Of a stretch of DNA of 35,707 nt, positions 29,885 through 35,667 are shown piece by piece. Source of the stretch: an uncultured bacterium (GTDB lineage Bacteria > Bacillota_I > Bacilli_A > RF39 > UBA660). Positions within the stretch are counted from its first letter, which is position 1; every line of letters starts with the position of its first letter. The stretch covers positions 1 through 35,707 of the forward strand of contig CALMHN010000061.1 in NCBI GenBank assembly GCA_937863745.1, read 5' to 3'. The notes below the pieces were generated by a model, which was not told where the DNA came from, ran no database searches, and saw only the letters and a program-made list of their open reading frames with translations. Both the position numbers and the translations under genes were made by a program.

Positions 29885-30874
29885 TTACCAAGTTAAATTA
29901 TCCATATGATCAATATTAATTCCAAATATATCTATAATTGGTTCTAGTCTCTTATATATTGCAATATCAAGCATAGCATCTATATCTGGATAAAAAATAG
30001 AGGTATCTAAATTAACTCCTTCAGGTACTGTAATAACATCAATCTGATCGTTTTTAATTAGCAAACCCTCAACACGCATTTGCTTTAATTTCTTATCATA
30101 ATCTTTGATCTTGCTACCATCTACTTTACTTATGGTAAATGTATATCCTCTATCTCCTTCATAAAAGGTAGGACCATATATGACATTGTATATTTTCATG
30201 CCTCTTATAGTCTTTGTCAATACTTTATATTCTCTAGCACCCCATCCACCTGGTACTCCTAAAGTATAATCACCAGCCATAAGTCTGGTTTTATATTCGT
30301 CTATATATTTGTCTATCAGATTTAAAATTTGAAAAGAACTATATTCTTCTCTTAATATCTTATCTATAACATCTTGTAACATCTGTTTGGTAAATCTTGG
30401 GAAATCTGCTCTAACCACCTCCATACCCGTGATACTTAGATCGTCTATTTTCTTTCCTTCTTTGTTGATGATCCATAATGCATACTTCTTCTTTGCATCT
30501 AAGAACATAGCTCTCTTAATAACTAATTCTTCCTTAAATGTAAAGTTATATTTAGTGGCAAGCTCAGAATCACCAGCATTATGCCTTTTAAGCATTTCAG
30601 GAATGATATATGTATTAATATATTCAGAACATTTTCTAACAATCTTTAAAGTAGCTTCTGTCTTTTCATCTTCACTTATTGAATCATATTTATCACCATA
30701 TAAAGATTTGAGCACTGGTTCAATAAAGAGAAACATTGAATCAGTATTATGTACTAAAATGTCATTAGCAAAAAACATATGGTTATTATCAACTTCGATA
30801 TCATATACATACTCTGGTATATTGTTTTCAATTTTCTCAACAGATGTTATTCTTTCCTTTACTATAGACATCAT
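29885..30874 (-). CDS. Family-B DNA polymerase C-terminal fragment: split-intein C-half followed by the motif C / thumb extein
   Basis: The first 43 aa end EYVYDIEVDNNHMFFANDILVHN, matching intein blocks F/G with terminal His-Asn. They are followed by TDSMFLFIEP, the second half of PolB motif C (YGDTDS). The gene has its own GGAGG SD and ATG. Confidence 0.9.
   Translation of the reverse strand: MMSIVKERITSVEKIENNIPEYVYDIEVDNNHMFFANDILVHNTDSMFLFIEPVLKSLYGDKYDSISEDEKTEATLKIVRKCSEYINTYIIPEMLKRHNAGDSELATKYNFTFKEELVIKRAMFLDAKKKYALWIINKEGKKIDDLSITGMEVVRADFPRFTKQMLQDVIDKILREEYSSFQILNLIDKYIDEYKTRLMAGDYTLGVPGGWGAREYKVLTKTIRGMKIYNVIYGPTFYEGDRGYTFTISKVDGSKIKDYDKKLKQMRVEGLLIKNDQIDVITVPEGVNLDTSIFYPDIDAMLDIAIYKRLEPIIDIFGINIDHMDNLTW
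30746..30874 (-). mobile_element. Split intein C-fragment (Int-C, 43 aa)
   Basis: Block F is VYDIEVDNNHMFFAN and block G is ILVHN, followed by +1 Thr (codon 30743-30745). Confidence 0.85.
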
Positions 30875-30893
30875 CTAATACCTCCTCAAAATA

Positions 30894-30915
30894 TACATAT
30901 ATATTATTATAATGA
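30894..30915 (+). promoter_or_regulatory. Promoter-like 22-nt repeat, copy 1 (contains TATAAT)
   Basis: TACATATATATTATTATAATGA is identical to the copy at 31104-31125. TATAAT can be read on both strands here (plus 30908-30913, minus 30906-30911). Confidence 0.5.
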
Positions 30916-31019
30916 TATGGAGTAATCCATATCAATCATATAACATTGCCACAGCAGAACCACCAGGCTCCCTAATAATATATCACATCTGGAGATATAT
31001 ATCTCCAAATTTTTTTAAT
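30916..31019 (+). ncRNA. Candidate small RNA of about 100 nt, hypothetical
   Basis: It starts just after repeat copy 1. It has a 5' hairpin ATATGGA-GTAA-TCCATAT and a comparatively GC-rich core GCCACAGCAGAACCACCAGGCTCCC. A 3' hairpin TGGAGAT-ATAT-ATCTCCA is followed by AAATTTTTTT. No SD-led ORF is present. Confidence 0.25.
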
Positions 31020-31103
31020 TGTCTTTATGGATTAAGTGTAGCATAATATCTCTCACTTATCAAGCATATCAATATTAATTATTACTTTAATAATATAAAA
31101 ATT

Positions 31104-31125
31104 TACATATATATTATTATAATGA
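31104..31125 (+). promoter_or_regulatory. Promoter-like 22-nt repeat, copy 2, upstream of the plus-strand cassette
   Basis: It matches copy 1 exactly over 22 nt and lies 74 nt upstream of the ATG at 31199. Confidence 0.5.
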
Positions 31126-31198
31126 AAGAAGAAGTTTGTAGCTATGTGTTACGAGCTTTTTTCTTTCAAATATTTTTTACTTTTAGGGAGGTATTAGC

Positions 31199-31420
31199 AT
31201 GTTTAAAGTTGTTGTTGAGTCCTTGTTTAATGACAGGTATGGAAAAGGTAAGAGGAAAGAATTTGTTGTCTTAAGCAAAGCTATTGCTATTCAAAAAGCA
31301 ATGGGGTTTAGTAAACATGCTTGTGTAGAAGTTGTAGATGATCTCCATAAACAATGTGTTGCTTATGGTGATCCAATAATAGGATTCAAGGAGATTGAGA
31401 ATTATGAGCACAATTTGTAA
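31199..31420 (+). CDS. Small hypothetical protein, first gene of the plus-strand cassette
   Basis: 73-aa ORF with ATG 7 nt after AGGGAGG. It overlaps the start of the next gene by 17 nt. Confidence 0.6.
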   Translation: MFKVVVESLFNDRYGKGKRKEFVVLSKAIAIQKAMGFSKHACVEVVDDLHKQCVAYGDPIIGFKEIENYEHNL

Positions 31421-31739
31421 TAAGATGTATAAAGCAGTACTGCCAACTACAGTATTGCCAAAAGATGGAATTTATCAGGTAAGGACACTTGAGACCTTAC
31501 CTGATATCACTGGGGTGCCTCATTATATAGGGCATCCTGCAACGAAGGTAATTGTAGAACAGCTTGGAGCAGTTGAAGCTTCCTCCAAGCTGTTCCAAGG
31601 ATTGGATGTTGGCGAAGCTGTTGTATGTTTTGCCATCAAGCAAGGAAGAAGTACTAGAAAGGATGATGGGTTCACAACTCCTCATCAAGAAGTTAACATT
31701 GATGATCTTTCTGTAAGAGAGATCATCAGATTAGAGTAA
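31404..31739 (+). CDS. DUF1874 family protein (AcrIII-1 / STIV B116 / YddF-like); candidate cyclic-oligoadenylate ring nuclease
   Basis: YKAVLPTTVLPKDGIYQV...HYIGHPATKVIVEQLG......VGEAVVCFAIKQGRSTRKDDG...VREIIRLE follows the DUF1874 pattern seen in SIRV1 gp29 and B116. That pattern is N..SINML...(I/A)IGHDSTI.L(I/V)N.LCG...., then (E/G)D(K/E)(L/A), a hydrophobic run and QRLEEGK. I place the start at ATG 31404, 10 nt after AAGGAG. The ORF track's TTG at 31395 is less likely. GC is about 40-47% against about 25% in the flanks. Confidence 0.65.
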   Translation: MSTICNKMYKAVLPTTVLPKDGIYQVRTLETLPDITGVPHYIGHPATKVIVEQLGAVEASSKLFQGLDVGEAVVCFAIKQGRSTRKDDGFTTPHQEVNIDDLSVREIIRLE

Positions 31740-31745
31740 TAGAAA

Positions 31746-31781
31746 ATGGAAATGATCTGAGAATACTCAGGTCATTTCCAT
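31746..31781 (+). terminator. Hairpin downstream of the DUF1874 gene, terminator or attenuator
   Basis: A 16-bp stem, ATGGAAATGATCTGAG / CTCAGGTCATTTCCAT, with one mismatch and loop AATA. The U-tract is weak. Confidence 0.45.
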
Positions 31782-31814
31782 AAATACATAATTAAGAATA
31801 AGGAGATGACAATA

Positions 31815-32306
31815 ATGAAAAAATTAACAAAATTATTTGTTTTATCTTTTATTATAAGCTACTTCTGTATAAATACAGGATTAGCATATGGGAATAATCT
31901 ACATTTAGGAACAATTCCAAATGTAGATTATAAAATAGCTGAAAATAATGGTAATAATACTATCACCATCAATGAAAGTGGTACATCTAACATTGATGTA
32001 GTGTTAGATGAATATGGTGATGTTTGCTTTAATATTAATAAAATAAATCTCTATTTTACTGCAAATATATTTGCTGTGTTAGATATCTTAACACAGCTTG
32101 ATGTAATTGAGCCAGGCTCATATAGAAATATGATTTTGGATGACAATGGAGTGACATTTGAAGTTGGTGTCAACTCTGTGAAAAAGGATAACGTCATGAT
32201 GTGCATTAGTAATCAAGATATATCACTAATTCTAGACATTAAAACACCTAAACAGTTTCAATGTCTAGAAGATATAGAAAACAATATTCGCTCCTTATTT
32301 AAATGA
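31815..32306 (+). CDS. Secreted protein of unknown function (signal peptide)
   Basis: I place the start at ATG 31815, 9 nt after AAGGAG. The N-terminus MKKLTKLFVLSFIISYFCINTGLAYG-NN is a classic signal peptide. Confidence 0.65.
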   Translation: MKKLTKLFVLSFIISYFCINTGLAYGNNLHLGTIPNVDYKIAENNGNNTITINESGTSNIDVVLDEYGDVCFNINKINLYFTANIFAVLDILTQLDVIEPGSYRNMILDDNGVTFEVGVNSVKKDNVMMCISNQDISLILDIKTPKQFQCLEDIENNIRSLFK

Positions 32307-32313
32307 AATAGAT

Positions 32314-32356
32314 AAAGATATCAAGCGTGATTAAATGAATCACGCTTGATATCTTT
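32314..32356. terminator. Bidirectional terminator between the cassette and the polymerase N-fragment
   Basis: A perfect 19-bp stem, AAAGATATCAAGCGTGATT / AATCACGCTTGATATCTTT, with loop AAATG and T-rich flanks on both strands. Confidence 0.8.
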
Positions 32357-32382
32357 TATTTAAGTAGTATATTTCACTATAT

Positions 32383-35300
32383 TTATTTTTGGTTTGTCAA
32401 TACAAGATCAGAATCCAATATCTCATTTGGTTTAACTTGCATTAATTGTCCGTCTCTCTCAACCATAATAGAATGGTCTTCAGTTACAATTAATTCTTTT
32501 CCACTTTCAGTTCTGATTCTATACATTGGTTTATTAACTTTATGTCGTGACATATTATTTATTGGTCTATATACAGCATCAGAATCTTCATATGTAAGTA
32601 CTTTGTCATTTGCAAAGATATATTCTCTTCCTATATAATTCATAAGTTTGTATTCCTTATGCCTTTCAAATAGATCTTTGATTGGTATACCTTCTGGATA
32701 TTGTTCAGTATTTATTTTTGTATTTTCATCAACAGAATCACCATACACTATATTCTCCAGTACATCAGCATCAAGAAATTTTGTATCAAATTCATATGGT
32801 TCAATATCCATCTTATGAGCATCTCTCATTTTATTTAAATACTGATGAATATGATATGCACCCATTGTTACTATTTCTCTTCCAGATGCAGTTATAGTCT
32901 CTGCAGATGGAAAATGAAACAGTCGAAAATATTGATTAGCAATTCCACCATATAGTGAGTTAGTAAGAACCTTATAAGTAAATTGCCAGTTATTATATCT
33001 TTCTGCTAACATATGATTATTATTCTCAATAGCTTTAAACATTTCATTTTTATATCGTTTGCGTTCTCTAATAAGCATATCTATAATTTCATAATAAACT
33101 GATAATTTTGTATTATGATTGACATACATTGTACCCATTATTGTTATTATTAAATTGTATTTAGTTATAGTCTCATGTAATTTCTGTACTGTTATCTGTT
33201 TAACATTTAAATTCTTATCTTCATAATTAATAAGTCTATCTGGTTGAGATAATAATTCATCTCTATTATAGATATACTCACGAGCTATATATTCATCTAC
33301 CTTACCAACATAGGTGTCAATAGAAATATTATATCGTGCTATGATATATGGATATAGAGAAGAAAGATCCAAATCAGCCAACCAGTTATATAATCCTTTT
33401 AATGGTTTTCTTACAAAAGCACCTTTGAGCTTTTCTGTTTTCTGATCATTATCTTTATCATATTCATATTTTTTACATATAACTGTCTTATTTTGTTTAT
33501 CTAATGTTGTAAATAGAATACCATCTATAATTGGAAGTGTGCTGAATGATTCCTCCCAACTGATGTTGGTAGCTCTTATAATGTTAAATTGAATATCAAT
33601 ATATTTAAGTTTATTGTCCAACTTTCTAACAAGATGAACATCATTAATATTATAAGCAATGAATCTATTGGGATCTGATAACCACATATCATCAAATCGT
33701 TTGTCAAGAGACAGTTTCTTTATACCAAGTTCAAATTCAGCAATAAAACCAAGTGTATAAGATTCTCTTTTACTAAATGTTCTTTTCTTATACAAGGTTA
33801 AATAATCACATTCCACGACATATGGAATGTATGGTTTATTAGTTCTCTCATTAATAAAAATACGACCATATTTGTTTTTACATTCTATTCCAAGATATTG
33901 TGATCTATTAATAATAAATGGCCAGTCAAATGCTGATGAGTTCCATCCTGTTACAAGATCAGGATCTATTTCATCAAATTTTTGAATAAAACCATTCAAC
34001 ATCTTTCTTTCATCATTATATACAAATATTTCAATATTACACTCATCTTTATATTCTAGATGTTTTATTATTTTTTGTTTATCAATGTTCAAATTGAATG
34101 AGTTGTTTATAAATGTATAATAGGTATCAGTATAGTTATCATACAGAGTTATCAACGATATAGCATATCTCTTTGCAGCTGCCATCATGTCATCGAGAAG
34201 CATCATATTGCCATTGAGAAACAATTCTATATCTATAGCAGCAATTCTTAATGGTTGTTCAGTCTCTGTATAAGTGTTTCTAAACTGAATATTCTTATAT
34301 ACTGATAGATTCATATCTCCAAAGACATTAAACCCTTTACTCTTCAAATCATTTATTACATTTATTCTATCTTTAAACGGTACAACTTTGAGCTTTAATT
34401 TATCCTTGTATTCAACAGTATTGTTTGATTTACCATAATACAAAGCATATTTATCATCTGTGGTATGAATTATTTTATCTTGTCCTCTTCTTAATATATA
34501 ATTAACTTCAGATTTAAGATAATTGTATACTGTATTGACTAACATTATATTATCTGATGTATTACTTGTGGTATCAGTATCACTCTTATTGTCATTAACT
34601 GTTTCATATTTAGTATTGTTAGGAATAGGAAATAACTTCCTCACATCATCAGTAGTATAAGACATATGTGGTTGAACATTATCTTTTGATTCTACAGCAT
34701 ATCTTATTTGTTTTAACCTATTAGCAAAAATATCGTATCTGGACATATTTCTGCATATTGCTGATGGATGAATACATGGCAATAATAGATGATCATTATA
34801 TTTATATATCTTTGTCATAGCATCAGTTATCTTATCTGTTATACCAAATCTACTACATGGATAATTACCAAGTGGAACTATAACAGCATCAGCAGGTAAT
34901 TTAGAAATGATTAACTCTAGATTGTCAAAACAATATGCTATCTCATCTTTCATTGGTGGGTTTGATGGTTGATGAAAACATAAACAAACATTCATAACAC
35001 CCCAATGAATATCATTAAAACCAGTATTATCTAATGTTTGTCTTAATAACTGTCCTGCACGTCCAACAAAGGGTTTTCCTTCTTTAATTTCATTGACAGC
35101 TGGTGCTTCTCCAACAAATAATACTTTAACTTGAGATATATCATTTGTTGTAAAATCAAAAATAGTTCTTTGTACATCATCTTTATTAGATTTGCATAAT
35201 GCACATTGTGTAATGAGTCTCTTTTCTATCTCATCTTTCAATGGAGAAATAGTATCTATAGTATCTTCAACATTATTGGAAGAAACAATAGATTCTTGAT

Positions 35301-35667
35301 TAAAACTCTCAGCATTATTTTTTATCATAAGATATGTTTTGATATCTTTTTCTGATAAATAGGGATACTTTAGTTTTAATTGATTTATTTCATCAGTAGT
35401 TTTCTTTGATTTGTTTGACATAAATTGTATTTGTTTGGATCTGTTAATATATCTGTGAAATTCAGATAATTTATCAAAAGGTACATTTCGTGCAAGTATA
35501 GGATTAGTATTAATCAACTGATCTAAGTATATACAAGATAGCACATCATCTTCAGATATATTTAATATTGTGGATACATTAAGTTGCTTGACTGTATCAT
35601 CCAATGAATCAGTCTTATGTTGTATATAATAAATATATTTGGTTAGTGGTGATAACTCTTTTGCCAT
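32383..35667 (-). CDS. Family-B DNA polymerase N-terminal fragment: UDG-like domain, 3'-5' exonuclease, palm motifs A and B, first half of motif C, then split-intein N-half
   Basis: Motifs present are Exo I IAAIDIELF, Exo II GWNSSAFDWPFI, Exo III YNINDVHLV, motif A DLDLSSLYPYII and motif B KVLTNSLYGG. After ...ENIVYGD the sequence continues directly into intein sequence rather than TDS. Confidence 0.92.
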   Translation of the reverse strand: MAKELSPLTKYIYYIQHKTDSLDDTVKQLNVSTILNISEDDVLSCIYLDQLINTNPILARNVPFDKLSEFHRYINRSKQIQFMSNKSKKTTDEINQLKLKYPYLSEKDIKTYLMIKNNAESFNQESIVSSNNVEDTIDTISPLKDEIEKRLITQCALCKSNKDDVQRTIFDFTTNDISQVKVLFVGEAPAVNEIKEGKPFVGRAGQLLRQTLDNTGFNDIHWGVMNVCLCFHQPSNPPMKDEIAYCFDNLELIISKLPADAVIVPLGNYPCSRFGITDKITDAMTKIYKYNDHLLLPCIHPSAICRNMSRYDIFANRLKQIRYAVESKDNVQPHMSYTTDDVRKLFPIPNNTKYETVNDNKSDTDTTSNTSDNIMLVNTVYNYLKSEVNYILRRGQDKIIHTTDDKYALYYGKSNNTVEYKDKLKLKVVPFKDRINVINDLKSKGFNVFGDMNLSVYKNIQFRNTYTETEQPLRIAAIDIELFLNGNMMLLDDMMAAAKRYAISLITLYDNYTDTYYTFINNSFNLNIDKQKIIKHLEYKDECNIEIFVYNDERKMLNGFIQKFDEIDPDLVTGWNSSAFDWPFIINRSQYLGIECKNKYGRIFINERTNKPYIPYVVECDYLTLYKKRTFSKRESYTLGFIAEFELGIKKLSLDKRFDDMWLSDPNRFIAYNINDVHLVRKLDNKLKYIDIQFNIIRATNISWEESFSTLPIIDGILFTTLDKQNKTVICKKYEYDKDNDQKTEKLKGAFVRKPLKGLYNWLADLDLSSLYPYIIARYNISIDTYVGKVDEYIAREYIYNRDELLSQPDRLINYEDKNLNVKQITVQKLHETITKYNLIITIMGTMYVNHNTKLSVYYEIIDMLIRERKRYKNEMFKAIENNNHMLAERYNNWQFTYKVLTNSLYGGIANQYFRLFHFPSAETITASGREIVTMGAYHIHQYLNKMRDAHKMDIEPYEFDTKFLDADVLENIVYGDSVDENTKINTEQYPEGIPIKDLFERHKEYKLMNYIGREYIFANDKVLTYEDSDAVYRPINNMSRHKVNKPMYRIRTESGKELIVTEDHSIMVERDGQLMQVKPNEILDSDLVLTNQK
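32386..32736 (-). mobile_element. Split intein N-fragment (Int-N, 117 aa)
   Basis: It begins with Ser (codon 32734-32736) in SVDENTKI, matching block A. GKELIVTEDHSIMV matches block B (TxxH). The ORF then stops, and there is no endonuclease domain. Confidence 0.85.
34690..35235 (-). other. Family-4 uracil-DNA-glycosylase-like domain fused to the polymerase N-terminus
   Basis: Motif A is GEAPAVNEIKEGKPFVGRAGQLL and motif B is CIHPSAICRN. Four Cys sit at Fe-S-cluster-like positions (QCALCKS and NVCLCFHQPSNPPMKDEIAYC). Confidence 0.75.

Follow-up and report, generated by a model that had tools for sequence, protein, structure and literature searches.

A divergent DUF1874/AcrIII-1-fold protein of an uncultured tailed phage, a candidate cyclic-oligoadenylate ring nuclease

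Contig CALMHN010000061.1 (GenBank assembly GCA_937863745.1, from an uncultured bacterium) was analysed over its positions 1 to 35,707. This whole stretch of 35,707 nucleotides, referred to below as the window, is part of the genome of an uncultured tailed phage; its GC content is 29.5%. A small gene on its plus strand, at 31404-31739, encodes a protein of 111 amino acids (aa) which an earlier note, made from the sequence alone, had proposed as a viral ring nuclease of the DUF1874/AcrIII-1 type, degrading cyclic tetra-adenylate (cA4) and thereby switching off type III CRISPR effectors. The homology of this protein to DUF1874/AcrIII-1 is solid; the predicted ring-nuclease activity is likely. The features of the gene are listed here, with gp29 of the archaeal virus SIRV1 as reference for residue counterparts.

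31388-31393, plus strand: Shine-Dalgarno-like AAGGAG, 10 nt upstream of the ATG, read from the sequence.
31404-31739, plus strand: candidate coding sequence of 111 aa (ATG at 31404, TAA at 31737-31739), for a divergent protein of the DUF1874/AcrIII-1 fold, a candidate ring nuclease for cyclic oligoadenylates.
31443-31445, plus strand: Pro14 codon CCA, aligning to gp29 Asn8.
31527-31544, plus strand: codons I42-G43-H44-P45-A46-T47 of the IGH..T motif, in the hhalign register.
31533-31535, plus strand: H44 codon, counterpart of the catalytic His47 of gp29.
31587-31589, plus strand: Lys62 codon, possible substitute for gp29 Arg66, the alignment being ambiguous by one column.
31644-31670, plus strand: codons G81-G89 (GRSTRKDDG), a 4-residue insertion followed by R85-K-D-D88-G89, counterpart of the cA4-locking loop R85-L-E-E88-G89 of gp29.

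The reading frame at 31404-31739 is a real gene and not a chance open reading frame (ORF), since it has homologues, a ribosome-binding site, a signature of purifying selection and a confident predicted fold. The 111-aa protein was identical on nine independent metagenome contigs from different samples, and the start at 31404 was also chosen by independent gene callers on eight other contigs. Its homologues numbered 52 at E ≤ 0.01 in a set of 5.8 billion proteins; a search with the family profile among 1.84 billion representatives retrieved 119 clusters at E ≤ 0.001, and in 102 cases the E-value lay below 1e-10. At 50% identity, the family comprises no fewer than 119 clusters. Comparison with a sister phage lineage (93% aa identity) yielded 14 synonymous and seven non-synonymous differences and a ratio of non-synonymous to synonymous rates (dN/dS) of 0.135, and the gene is thus under purifying selection. 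An alternative start at ATG 31425 (MYKAV...) was considered and rejected: it would match the usual N-terminus of relatives but lacks a ribosome-binding site, and the closest relatives keep an MST(I/F) N-terminus, which counts against it.

Direct sequence comparison did not assign the protein to an established family. No match was obtained in Pfam, PHROG or NCBIfam, nor by phmmer among the sequences of the Protein Data Bank (PDB), and the DUF1874 model PF08960 (gathering cut-off 26 bits) gave none even at E ≤ 1. By Pfam's own criterion, the 111-aa protein would not be counted as a DUF1874 member. Weak PF08960 matches were found in four of 40 relatives, the best one (P0043) reaching 16.9 bits and an E-value of 0.0069. 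Likewise, the family profile did not reach the DUF1874 chains among PDB sequences; its matches to ComR and a flagellin (E > 0.5) were discarded as chance ones. This failure indicates that searches of a hidden Markov model (HMM) against single sequences are too insensitive here, and that profile-profile and fold comparisons are needed.

For the profile-profile comparison, 32 PF08960 proteins were aligned around SIRV1 gp29 as the canonical reference; the gp29 sequence used matched 2X4I chain A at 100% identity. Aligned to it with hhalign, the family scored a probability of 93.9% (E 1.6e-7, 84 columns), and a deeper family alignment of 60 sequences raised this to 96.9% (E 1.6e-10), the 103 aligned columns spanning nearly the whole protein. 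A bridge between both groups was also found: among the 1.84 billion representatives, the family HMM reached, at E 4.6e-4 and over its full length, a protein (P0168) that is a true PF08960 member with 68.9 bits. The N-terminal NTTVLPNDGLY motif of the family recurs, moreover, in a canonical DUF1874 protein (SAVGH...NR...QRLPEGK) of locus L031. In its general form, (N/S)T(A/T)(I/V)LPxDG(T/L)Y, this motif is common to canonical members of bacterial type (P0168, L031) and to the family of the window protein, designated here the PHYIGHP family. The sequence data indicate that this family represents an unnamed, mostly phage-borne sister clade of PF08960.

The fold was addressed with two AlphaFold2 monomer models built from family-only alignments, with a mean predicted local distance difference test (pLDDT) of 85.0 and 87.4 and a predicted template modelling (TM) score of 0.75 and 0.78, respectively. 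In Foldseek searches both models retrieved the same 16 top PDB chains, all of them DUF1874 structures, with probabilities of 0.77-1.0 and TM scores of 0.45-0.58. These chains belong to the Csx1-Crn2 fusion (8Y7F/8Y7G), AFV3-109 (2J6B), SIRV1 gp29 without ligand (2X4I) and with cA4 (6SCF), and STIV B116 (2J85). Matches ranked below them were noise (probability <0.1, TM about 0.2), so that only DUF1874 structures stood out, at a TM of about 0.55; no Crn1, Crn3/Csx3 or CARF-type ring nuclease was among the PDB matches. In the viral structure database BFVD, the second match was a protein of Thermoanaerobacterium phage THSA-485A (I3VYU1; probability 1.0, TM 0.55-0.59), and SRV and STIV proteins were also retrieved. 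The deeper alignment used for the second model left the TM at about 0.55, which suggests that the moderate similarity reflects real divergence and not a poor model. The models thus predict a DUF1874 alpha/beta fold, the resemblance being clear but moderate. The helix found between strands 2 and 3 in canonical AcrIII-1 is absent from the model. The lowest pLDDT values (67-74) were those of residues 81-100, in keeping with a lid loop that is mobile, as described for gp29 in the AcrIII-1 paper.

The sequence strings on which the earlier note had relied are all present in the protein, namely YKAVLPTTVL (residues 9-18), HYIGHPATKVIVEQLG (40-55), GEAVVCFAI (70-78) and RSTRKDDG (82-89). Both of its predicted beta-strands were recovered in the models, at residues 9-13 and 72-78, and a helix (45-53) starts from the histidine. 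The IGH..T and R-x-x-D-G motifs fell in register with H47/T50 and R85/E88/G89 of gp29, respectively. The homology proposed in the earlier note is supported by the profile-profile scores (93.9-96.9%), the fold and the register of these motifs. Its statement that the protein follows the DUF1874 pattern is not supported in that form: the Pfam model is not matched, gp29 N8 is changed, and R66 is at best replaced by Lys62.

According to the AcrIII-1 paper, cA4 is contacted in gp29 by N8, S11, N13, H47, S49, T50, R66, I69, Q81, R85 and L92; H47 acts as general acid, and the contact of Asn8 is made also through its main chain. In Csx1-Crn2, the mutations N451A, H495A, R514A and E536A, at the equivalents of gp29 N8, H47, R66 and E88, each markedly reduce cA4 cleavage. 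Conservation was counted over the 32 canonical proteins and 40 family members, H44 and T47 being checked in the 60-member family alignment as well. H44 aligns to gp29 H47 in both hhalign runs and with MAFFT, and is invariant in the family (40/40 and 60/60; canonical H47, 31/32). T47, counterpart of T50, is likewise invariant (40/40 and 60/60; 32/32 canonical), and both residues are so throughout the joint alignment with canonical proteins. In gp29, R85 locks cA4 and E88 supports the His. R85 is in register with gp29 R85 and conserved in all members of both sets (40/40 and 32/32), as is G89 with gp29 G89 (40/40; canonical 30/32). At position 88, where 31 of the 32 canonical proteins have Glu, the family has an acidic residue in 34 of 40 cases (Glu in 22, Asp in 12), Asp in the window protein. 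The central residues of the site are kept, namely the His, the Thr, the Arg, an acidic residue and the Gly. The insertion before R85 covers residues 81-84 in the first hhalign run and 80-83 in the deeper one. The family has additionally a set of invariant residues of its own (T15, P19, D21, G22, Y41, P45, L63, F64, G66, I78, Q80, S83 and R105), with H40, Q95 and R109 being near-invariant; H40 precedes the catalytic His by four residues, at a position filled by Ser or Asn in canonical proteins.

The surroundings of the gene in the phage genome are described by the following features.

29885-30874, minus strand: C-terminal part of a family-B DNA polymerase, starting with the C-terminal piece of a split intein (MMSIVKER...NDILVHN/TDS, the slash marking the junction); weak matches to PF00136 and PF14890.
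31087-31115, plus strand: weak (9/12) sigma-70-like promoter match upstream of the cassette.
31199-31420, plus strand: upstream ORF of 73 aa, its last 17 nt shared with the beginning of the candidate gene; no known family.
31746-31781, no strand assigned: perfect 16-bp hairpin directly after the stop of the candidate gene (-23.9 kcal/mol, z = -8.0).
31806-32306, plus strand: third ORF of the cassette, 166 aa, with a hydrophobic, signal-peptide-like N-terminus (MKKLTKLFVLSFIISYFCINTGLAYG).
32314-32356, no strand assigned: 19-bp hairpin between the cassette and the convergent N-terminal polymerase gene, scored as terminator-like.
32383-35667, minus strand: uracil-DNA-glycosylase domain and N-terminal part of the family-B polymerase, ending with the N-terminal piece of the split intein (YGD/SVDENT...TEDHS...LTNQK and stop); matches to PF03167, PF03104, PF00136 and, weakly, PF14890.

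The 111-aa gene is therefore the middle one of three plus-strand ORFs located between two minus-strand genes for polymerase halves. The split intein breaks the polymerase inside its YGDTDS motif, and Intein_splicing Pfam matches were obtained on both parts. The 1.5-kb gap between them (30875-32382) holds the three opposite-strand ORFs and no recognisable homing endonuclease, an arrangement kept on all related contigs. The uracil-DNA-glycosylase domain (PF03167, motif GEAPA) occupies the N-terminal third of the longer gene, fused ahead of the exonuclease and polymerase domains. The 73-aa ORF is probably co-transcribed with the candidate gene. It is represented by only three protein clusters in 5.8 billion sequences, is restricted to the window phage lineage, and diverges faster than its surroundings, with 84% identity to the sister lineage versus 93-98% for its neighbours. 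The 166-aa ORF, without match in Pfam, PHROG or NCBIfam, is also confined to the window phage lineage, and its product may be a secreted or membrane-associated moron product. Promoter matches in the cassette region did not exceed the count expected by chance. The 16-bp hairpin has no U-run on the plus strand and a U-rich TTTTCTATT tail on the minus strand; it may guard against antisense read-through from the polymerase gene, or stabilize the mRNA.

The earlier note had placed the gene in a moron-like cassette of a T4-type phage. In its base composition, the gene indeed looks like an acquired one: the GC content of the 111-aa gene is 40.5%, compared with 29.5% for the window and 27-33% for the neighbouring ORFs, which suggests horizontal acquisition from a source of higher GC. 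A functional link with the 73-aa and 166-aa neighbours was considered and rejected, both being restricted to the lineage and never found beside other family members. Given this and its deviating GC content, the 111-aa gene looks like an independently acquired passenger. As to the phage itself, the window contains genes for a tail sheath, a large terminase, a gp23-like head protein, a T4-type portal (Portal_T4), a DnaB-like helicase and the gp43-like family-B polymerase, and no tRNA gene was found in it. These hallmark genes agree with the T4-type label, but the closest cultured phages are only 24-27% identical (head protein, polymerase), and the label therefore holds at superfamily level only.

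A tblastn search of 50,697 phage genomes with the window protein gave two relatives only, in a Parageobacillus phage and in Moorella phage MTATph1, and did not reach phage THSA-485A. Further relatives were found at 17 IMG/VR loci and in five metagenome-assembled genomes (MAGs), from Syntrophopropionicum, Firmicutes UBA4795, Anaerolineae, Chromatiaceae and a gammaproteobacterium. Phage relatives sit among small early or replication-region genes. Of the two MAG neighbourhoods read, one adjoins a phage integrase and the other lies near TnpB. In the former (Firmicutes MAG UBA4795, locus L011, 10001-11557), the homologue is located between host genes (nrdD, nrdG, yunB) and the phage-integrase gene, a junction position which places it at the very edge of an integrated element. 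The family is thus carried almost entirely on phages or mobile elements, mostly in anaerobic or thermophilic settings of Firmicutes type.

On one phage-like contig (L032), a family member is surrounded by UvrD, ParB, SSB, RecT and PD-(D/E)XK genes, and a protein with a Cas6 C-terminal domain (PF01881; 15348-16016) is encoded about 8.5 kb downstream of it. This Cas6-like gene was judged too weak as a type III CRISPR link and was not used. In ten longer relatives, of 211-330 aa, no Pfam domain was found; most N-terminal extensions are therefore probably mis-called starts. The sole recurrent addition is a zinc ribbon, present either as a C-terminal extension (CPxCG...CxxCG) or as an insertion between strands 2 and 3. 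It was recorded in the proteins P0006, P0019, P0030, P0041, P0042, P0044, P0047, P0049 and P0051 and at loci L010, L024 and L027, and was not seen in the canonical DUF1874 set.

These observations point, with a probability that we put at roughly 60%, to a phage-borne, divergent ring nuclease of AcrIII-1 type acting on cA4. The small protein, with its DUF1874 (AcrIII-1/Crn2) fold, would probably form a homodimer. Between the two subunits, at their interface, a cyclic oligoadenylate of two-fold symmetry would be enclosed, cA4 being the most probable one. The loop bearing R85, D88 and G89 would close over the ligand, and His44, at the start of helix 45-53, would serve as general acid in a metal-independent cleavage to linear A2>P. 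Removal of the second messenger would leave the CARF/SAVED effectors of type III CRISPR systems in their inactive state. SIRV1 gp29, the THSA-485A protein and Crn2 are the models from which we infer dimerization, ligand, catalysis and an anti-CRISPR effect during infection. The further suggestion of the earlier note, that the host uses cA4-based immunity, is speculative.

Several results weigh against a cA4-degrading enzyme, beginning with the negative database, PF08960 and PDB sequence searches reported above. The fold match is moderate only, with a TM of about 0.55, a root mean square deviation of 4-7 Å and Foldseek E-values of 1e-3 or worse. At the position of gp29 N8, canonical proteins have Asn in 30 of 32 cases; the family has Ser in 38 of 40, Thr in one, and Pro in one, the window protein. 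The Asn65-Arg66 pair, found in 31 of the 32 canonical proteins, is absent in the family, where position 61 is Ser or Thr in 39 of 40 members. Lys62, which falls on N65 in the first hhalign run and on R66 in the deeper one, is a plausible, although not certain, replacement of Arg66 in this alignment; position 62 is Lys in 32, Arg in four and Asn in four of 40 members, hence basic in 36, and is followed by an invariant Leu63 (40/40). Position 88 is not acidic in six of the 40 family members, and of the four residues needed for cleavage by Crn2 only the His and the acidic residue are unchanged here. No cas10, csm or cmr genes occurred in the five homologue neighbourhoods read, and these provide no link to type III CRISPR. 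Finally, a canonical homologue, SIRV2 gp37, is reported in a preprint to lack an anti-CRISPR effect in native infection because of its expression in the middle or late phase (10.1101/2023.01.10.523387). Judged from the alignments, two phosphate-stabilizing residues would be replaced by chemically similar ones, with a unique Pro at one of them in the window phage. Reaction rate and specificity may differ from those of canonical enzymes, because the site is remodelled by the Asn8 to Ser/Pro and Asn65-Arg66 to Ser/Thr-Lys changes, by His40 and by other new invariant residues.

The same remodelling can be read as a change of ligand. The protein could retain fold and dimeric pocket for another job, by cleaving or sequestering cyclic hexa-adenylate (cA6), cyclic di-AMP (c-di-AMP) or a product of the cyclic-oligonucleotide-based antiphage signalling systems (CBASS), or by acting as a cA4 sponge without efficient cleavage. 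Such a change would be explained by the remodelled site (Ser/Pro14, Lys62, His40, Gln80, Ser83 and Arg105). In its favour, two residues out of the four on which Crn2 depends to cleave cA4 are not retained, and the family has invariant polar residues, including a second His, that are foreign to canonical DUF1874 proteins. Several relatives come, moreover, from Firmicutes phages and MAGs, and the AcrIII-1 paper places cA6 signalling mainly in certain bacterial phyla including Firmicutes and Actinobacteria. However, the core of the cA4 site (His, Thr, R-x-x-E/D-G loop) is kept in register, the substitutions (Asn to Ser, Arg to Lys) are chemically conservative, and the fold has no member known for another ligand; we regard a change of ligand as unlikely, if worth keeping in view. 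A stronger form of this idea extends it to the whole clade and appears quite doubtful. The PHYIGHP family would then have branched off within the AcrIII-1 fold with a function of its own, directed at a signal other than cA4 or using a different, two-histidine chemistry. Its site would, just as doubtfully, have been rebuilt: a second conserved His would stand at -4, Asn would have given way to Ser-Thr-Thr and Asn-Arg to Lys, and the lid loop would have lengthened. Equally tentatively, its target could be cA6, as used by Csm6 systems of Firmicutes type, or some other cyclic nucleotide.

It can also be supposed that the DUF1874 fold serves here a function unrelated to nucleotides, such as binding or inhibition of a host protein or binding of nucleic acid, the His being a leftover or having another role. 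The homologue SIRV2 gp37 has been reported to bind a lysine methyltransferase, and its native anti-CRISPR role has been doubted (10.1101/2023.01.10.523387); some database records call homologues 'DNA binding protein', and the window gene lies inside a replication module and not in a recognisable anti-defence island. That methyltransferase partner is, however, restricted to Crenarchaeota (same source), and the strict invariance of His44 and Thr47, with R85 and G89 in 40 of 40 members despite divergence to about 30% identity, is a pattern that suits an enzyme or ligand site better than a surface for protein-protein contacts. A non-nucleotide function is accordingly held to be improbable. Still less probable is a weakened allele, in which the Ser14 to Pro change would have cut or abolished activity in the window phage lineage, leaving the gene as a passenger. 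Pro14 is unique among the 40 members and confined to this lineage, the 93%-identical sister lineage keeping both Ser14 and Glu88, and N451A at the equivalent position of Crn2 markedly diminishes cleavage. Yet the Pro14 allele is intact and identical on nine contigs from different samples, the dN/dS of 0.135 against the sister lineage speaks for constraint, and a Pro might preserve the main-chain contact that gp29 Asn8 makes to cA4. A chance ORF in the AT-rich gap between the polymerase halves, which has in its favour the small size and the lack of a direct database family match and nothing more, is refuted by 52 close and 119 representative homologues, the ribosome-binding site, purifying selection and the confident fold, and has a negligible probability.

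To our knowledge, AcrIII-1 is the sole widespread anti-CRISPR acting by destruction of a second messenger, and its carriage by phages has been estimated with the PF08960 model. If the PHYIGHP family is active, the reach of ring-nuclease counter-defence has been under-counted. What is new is a sizeable, unnamed sister clade missed by the Pfam, PHROG and NCBIfam models, with substitutions at two positions of proven importance and conserved residues of its own. Among full-text matches on AcrIII-1/DUF1874-like homologues, no title or abstract points to such a clade. The natural Asn to Ser/Pro and Arg to Lys changes, at two positions that matter in Crn2, can be used directly to learn which features the fold requires for catalysis and for its choice of ligand. 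Should the family prove inactive on cA4, a DUF1874-fold clade with a different function would have been found for the first time; should the clade be a functionally distinct offshoot, viral ring-nuclease counter-defence would extend to signals now thought to escape AcrIII-1. Practical consequences for the window phage itself are modest, and another phage copy of AcrIII-1 is unsurprising as such, since its wide distribution among Caudovirales and bacterial genomes has already been described (AcrIII-1 paper).

Among known systems, the ring nucleases Crn1, Crn3/Csx3 and those of CARF type have the same output as proposed here, metal-independent degradation of cyclic oligoadenylates, with unrelated folds (CARF or Csx3) according to the literature. 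The viral AcrIII-1 proteins of known structure (SIRV1 gp29, 2X4I/6SCF; STIV B116, 2J85; AFV3-109, 2J6B) are closer. They share with the window protein a size of about 110 aa, the overall fold (Foldseek probability 0.8-1.0, TM about 0.55), the (I/V)GH..T motif that opens the central helix and aligns with His47/Thr50, the R-x-x-E/D-G loop on R85/E88/G89 and a viral location. On the other hand, identity to them is about 11-19% only, and the 111-aa protein falls below the Pfam cut-off; it has Pro for Asn8 (Ser in the family), Ser/Thr-Lys for Asn65-Arg66 and a 4-residue insertion before R85, and adds H40 (near-invariant) and the invariant Y41, D21, G22, Q80, S83 and R105. SIRV1, STIV and AFV3 have archaeal hosts, whereas the host of the window phage is bacterial.

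Bacterial relatives of AcrIII-1 have also been studied. The AcrIII-1 paper reports that the protein of Thermoanaerobacterium phage THSA-485A abolishes cA4-based but not cA6-based type III immunity, and that YddF of B. subtilis was assayed for cA4 cleavage. The THSA-485A protein resembles the window protein in being phage-borne and is its second-best match in BFVD; not being reached by tblastn, it belongs to a separate clade at sequence level. The best Foldseek match in the PDB was the Crn2 domain of Csx1-Crn2 from Marinitoga (8Y7F/8Y7G; E 1.2e-3, probability 1.0), whose catalytic His H495 and acidic loop residue E536 have counterparts in the 111-aa protein, whereas N451 and R514, required there, are not conserved. 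Crn2 is host-encoded, fused to Csx1 in type III loci, and works as a self-limiting off-switch; the 111-aa protein is free-standing and phage-borne. Its location on phages or mobile elements outside cas loci fits the viral AcrIII-1 rather than the definition of a host Crn2.

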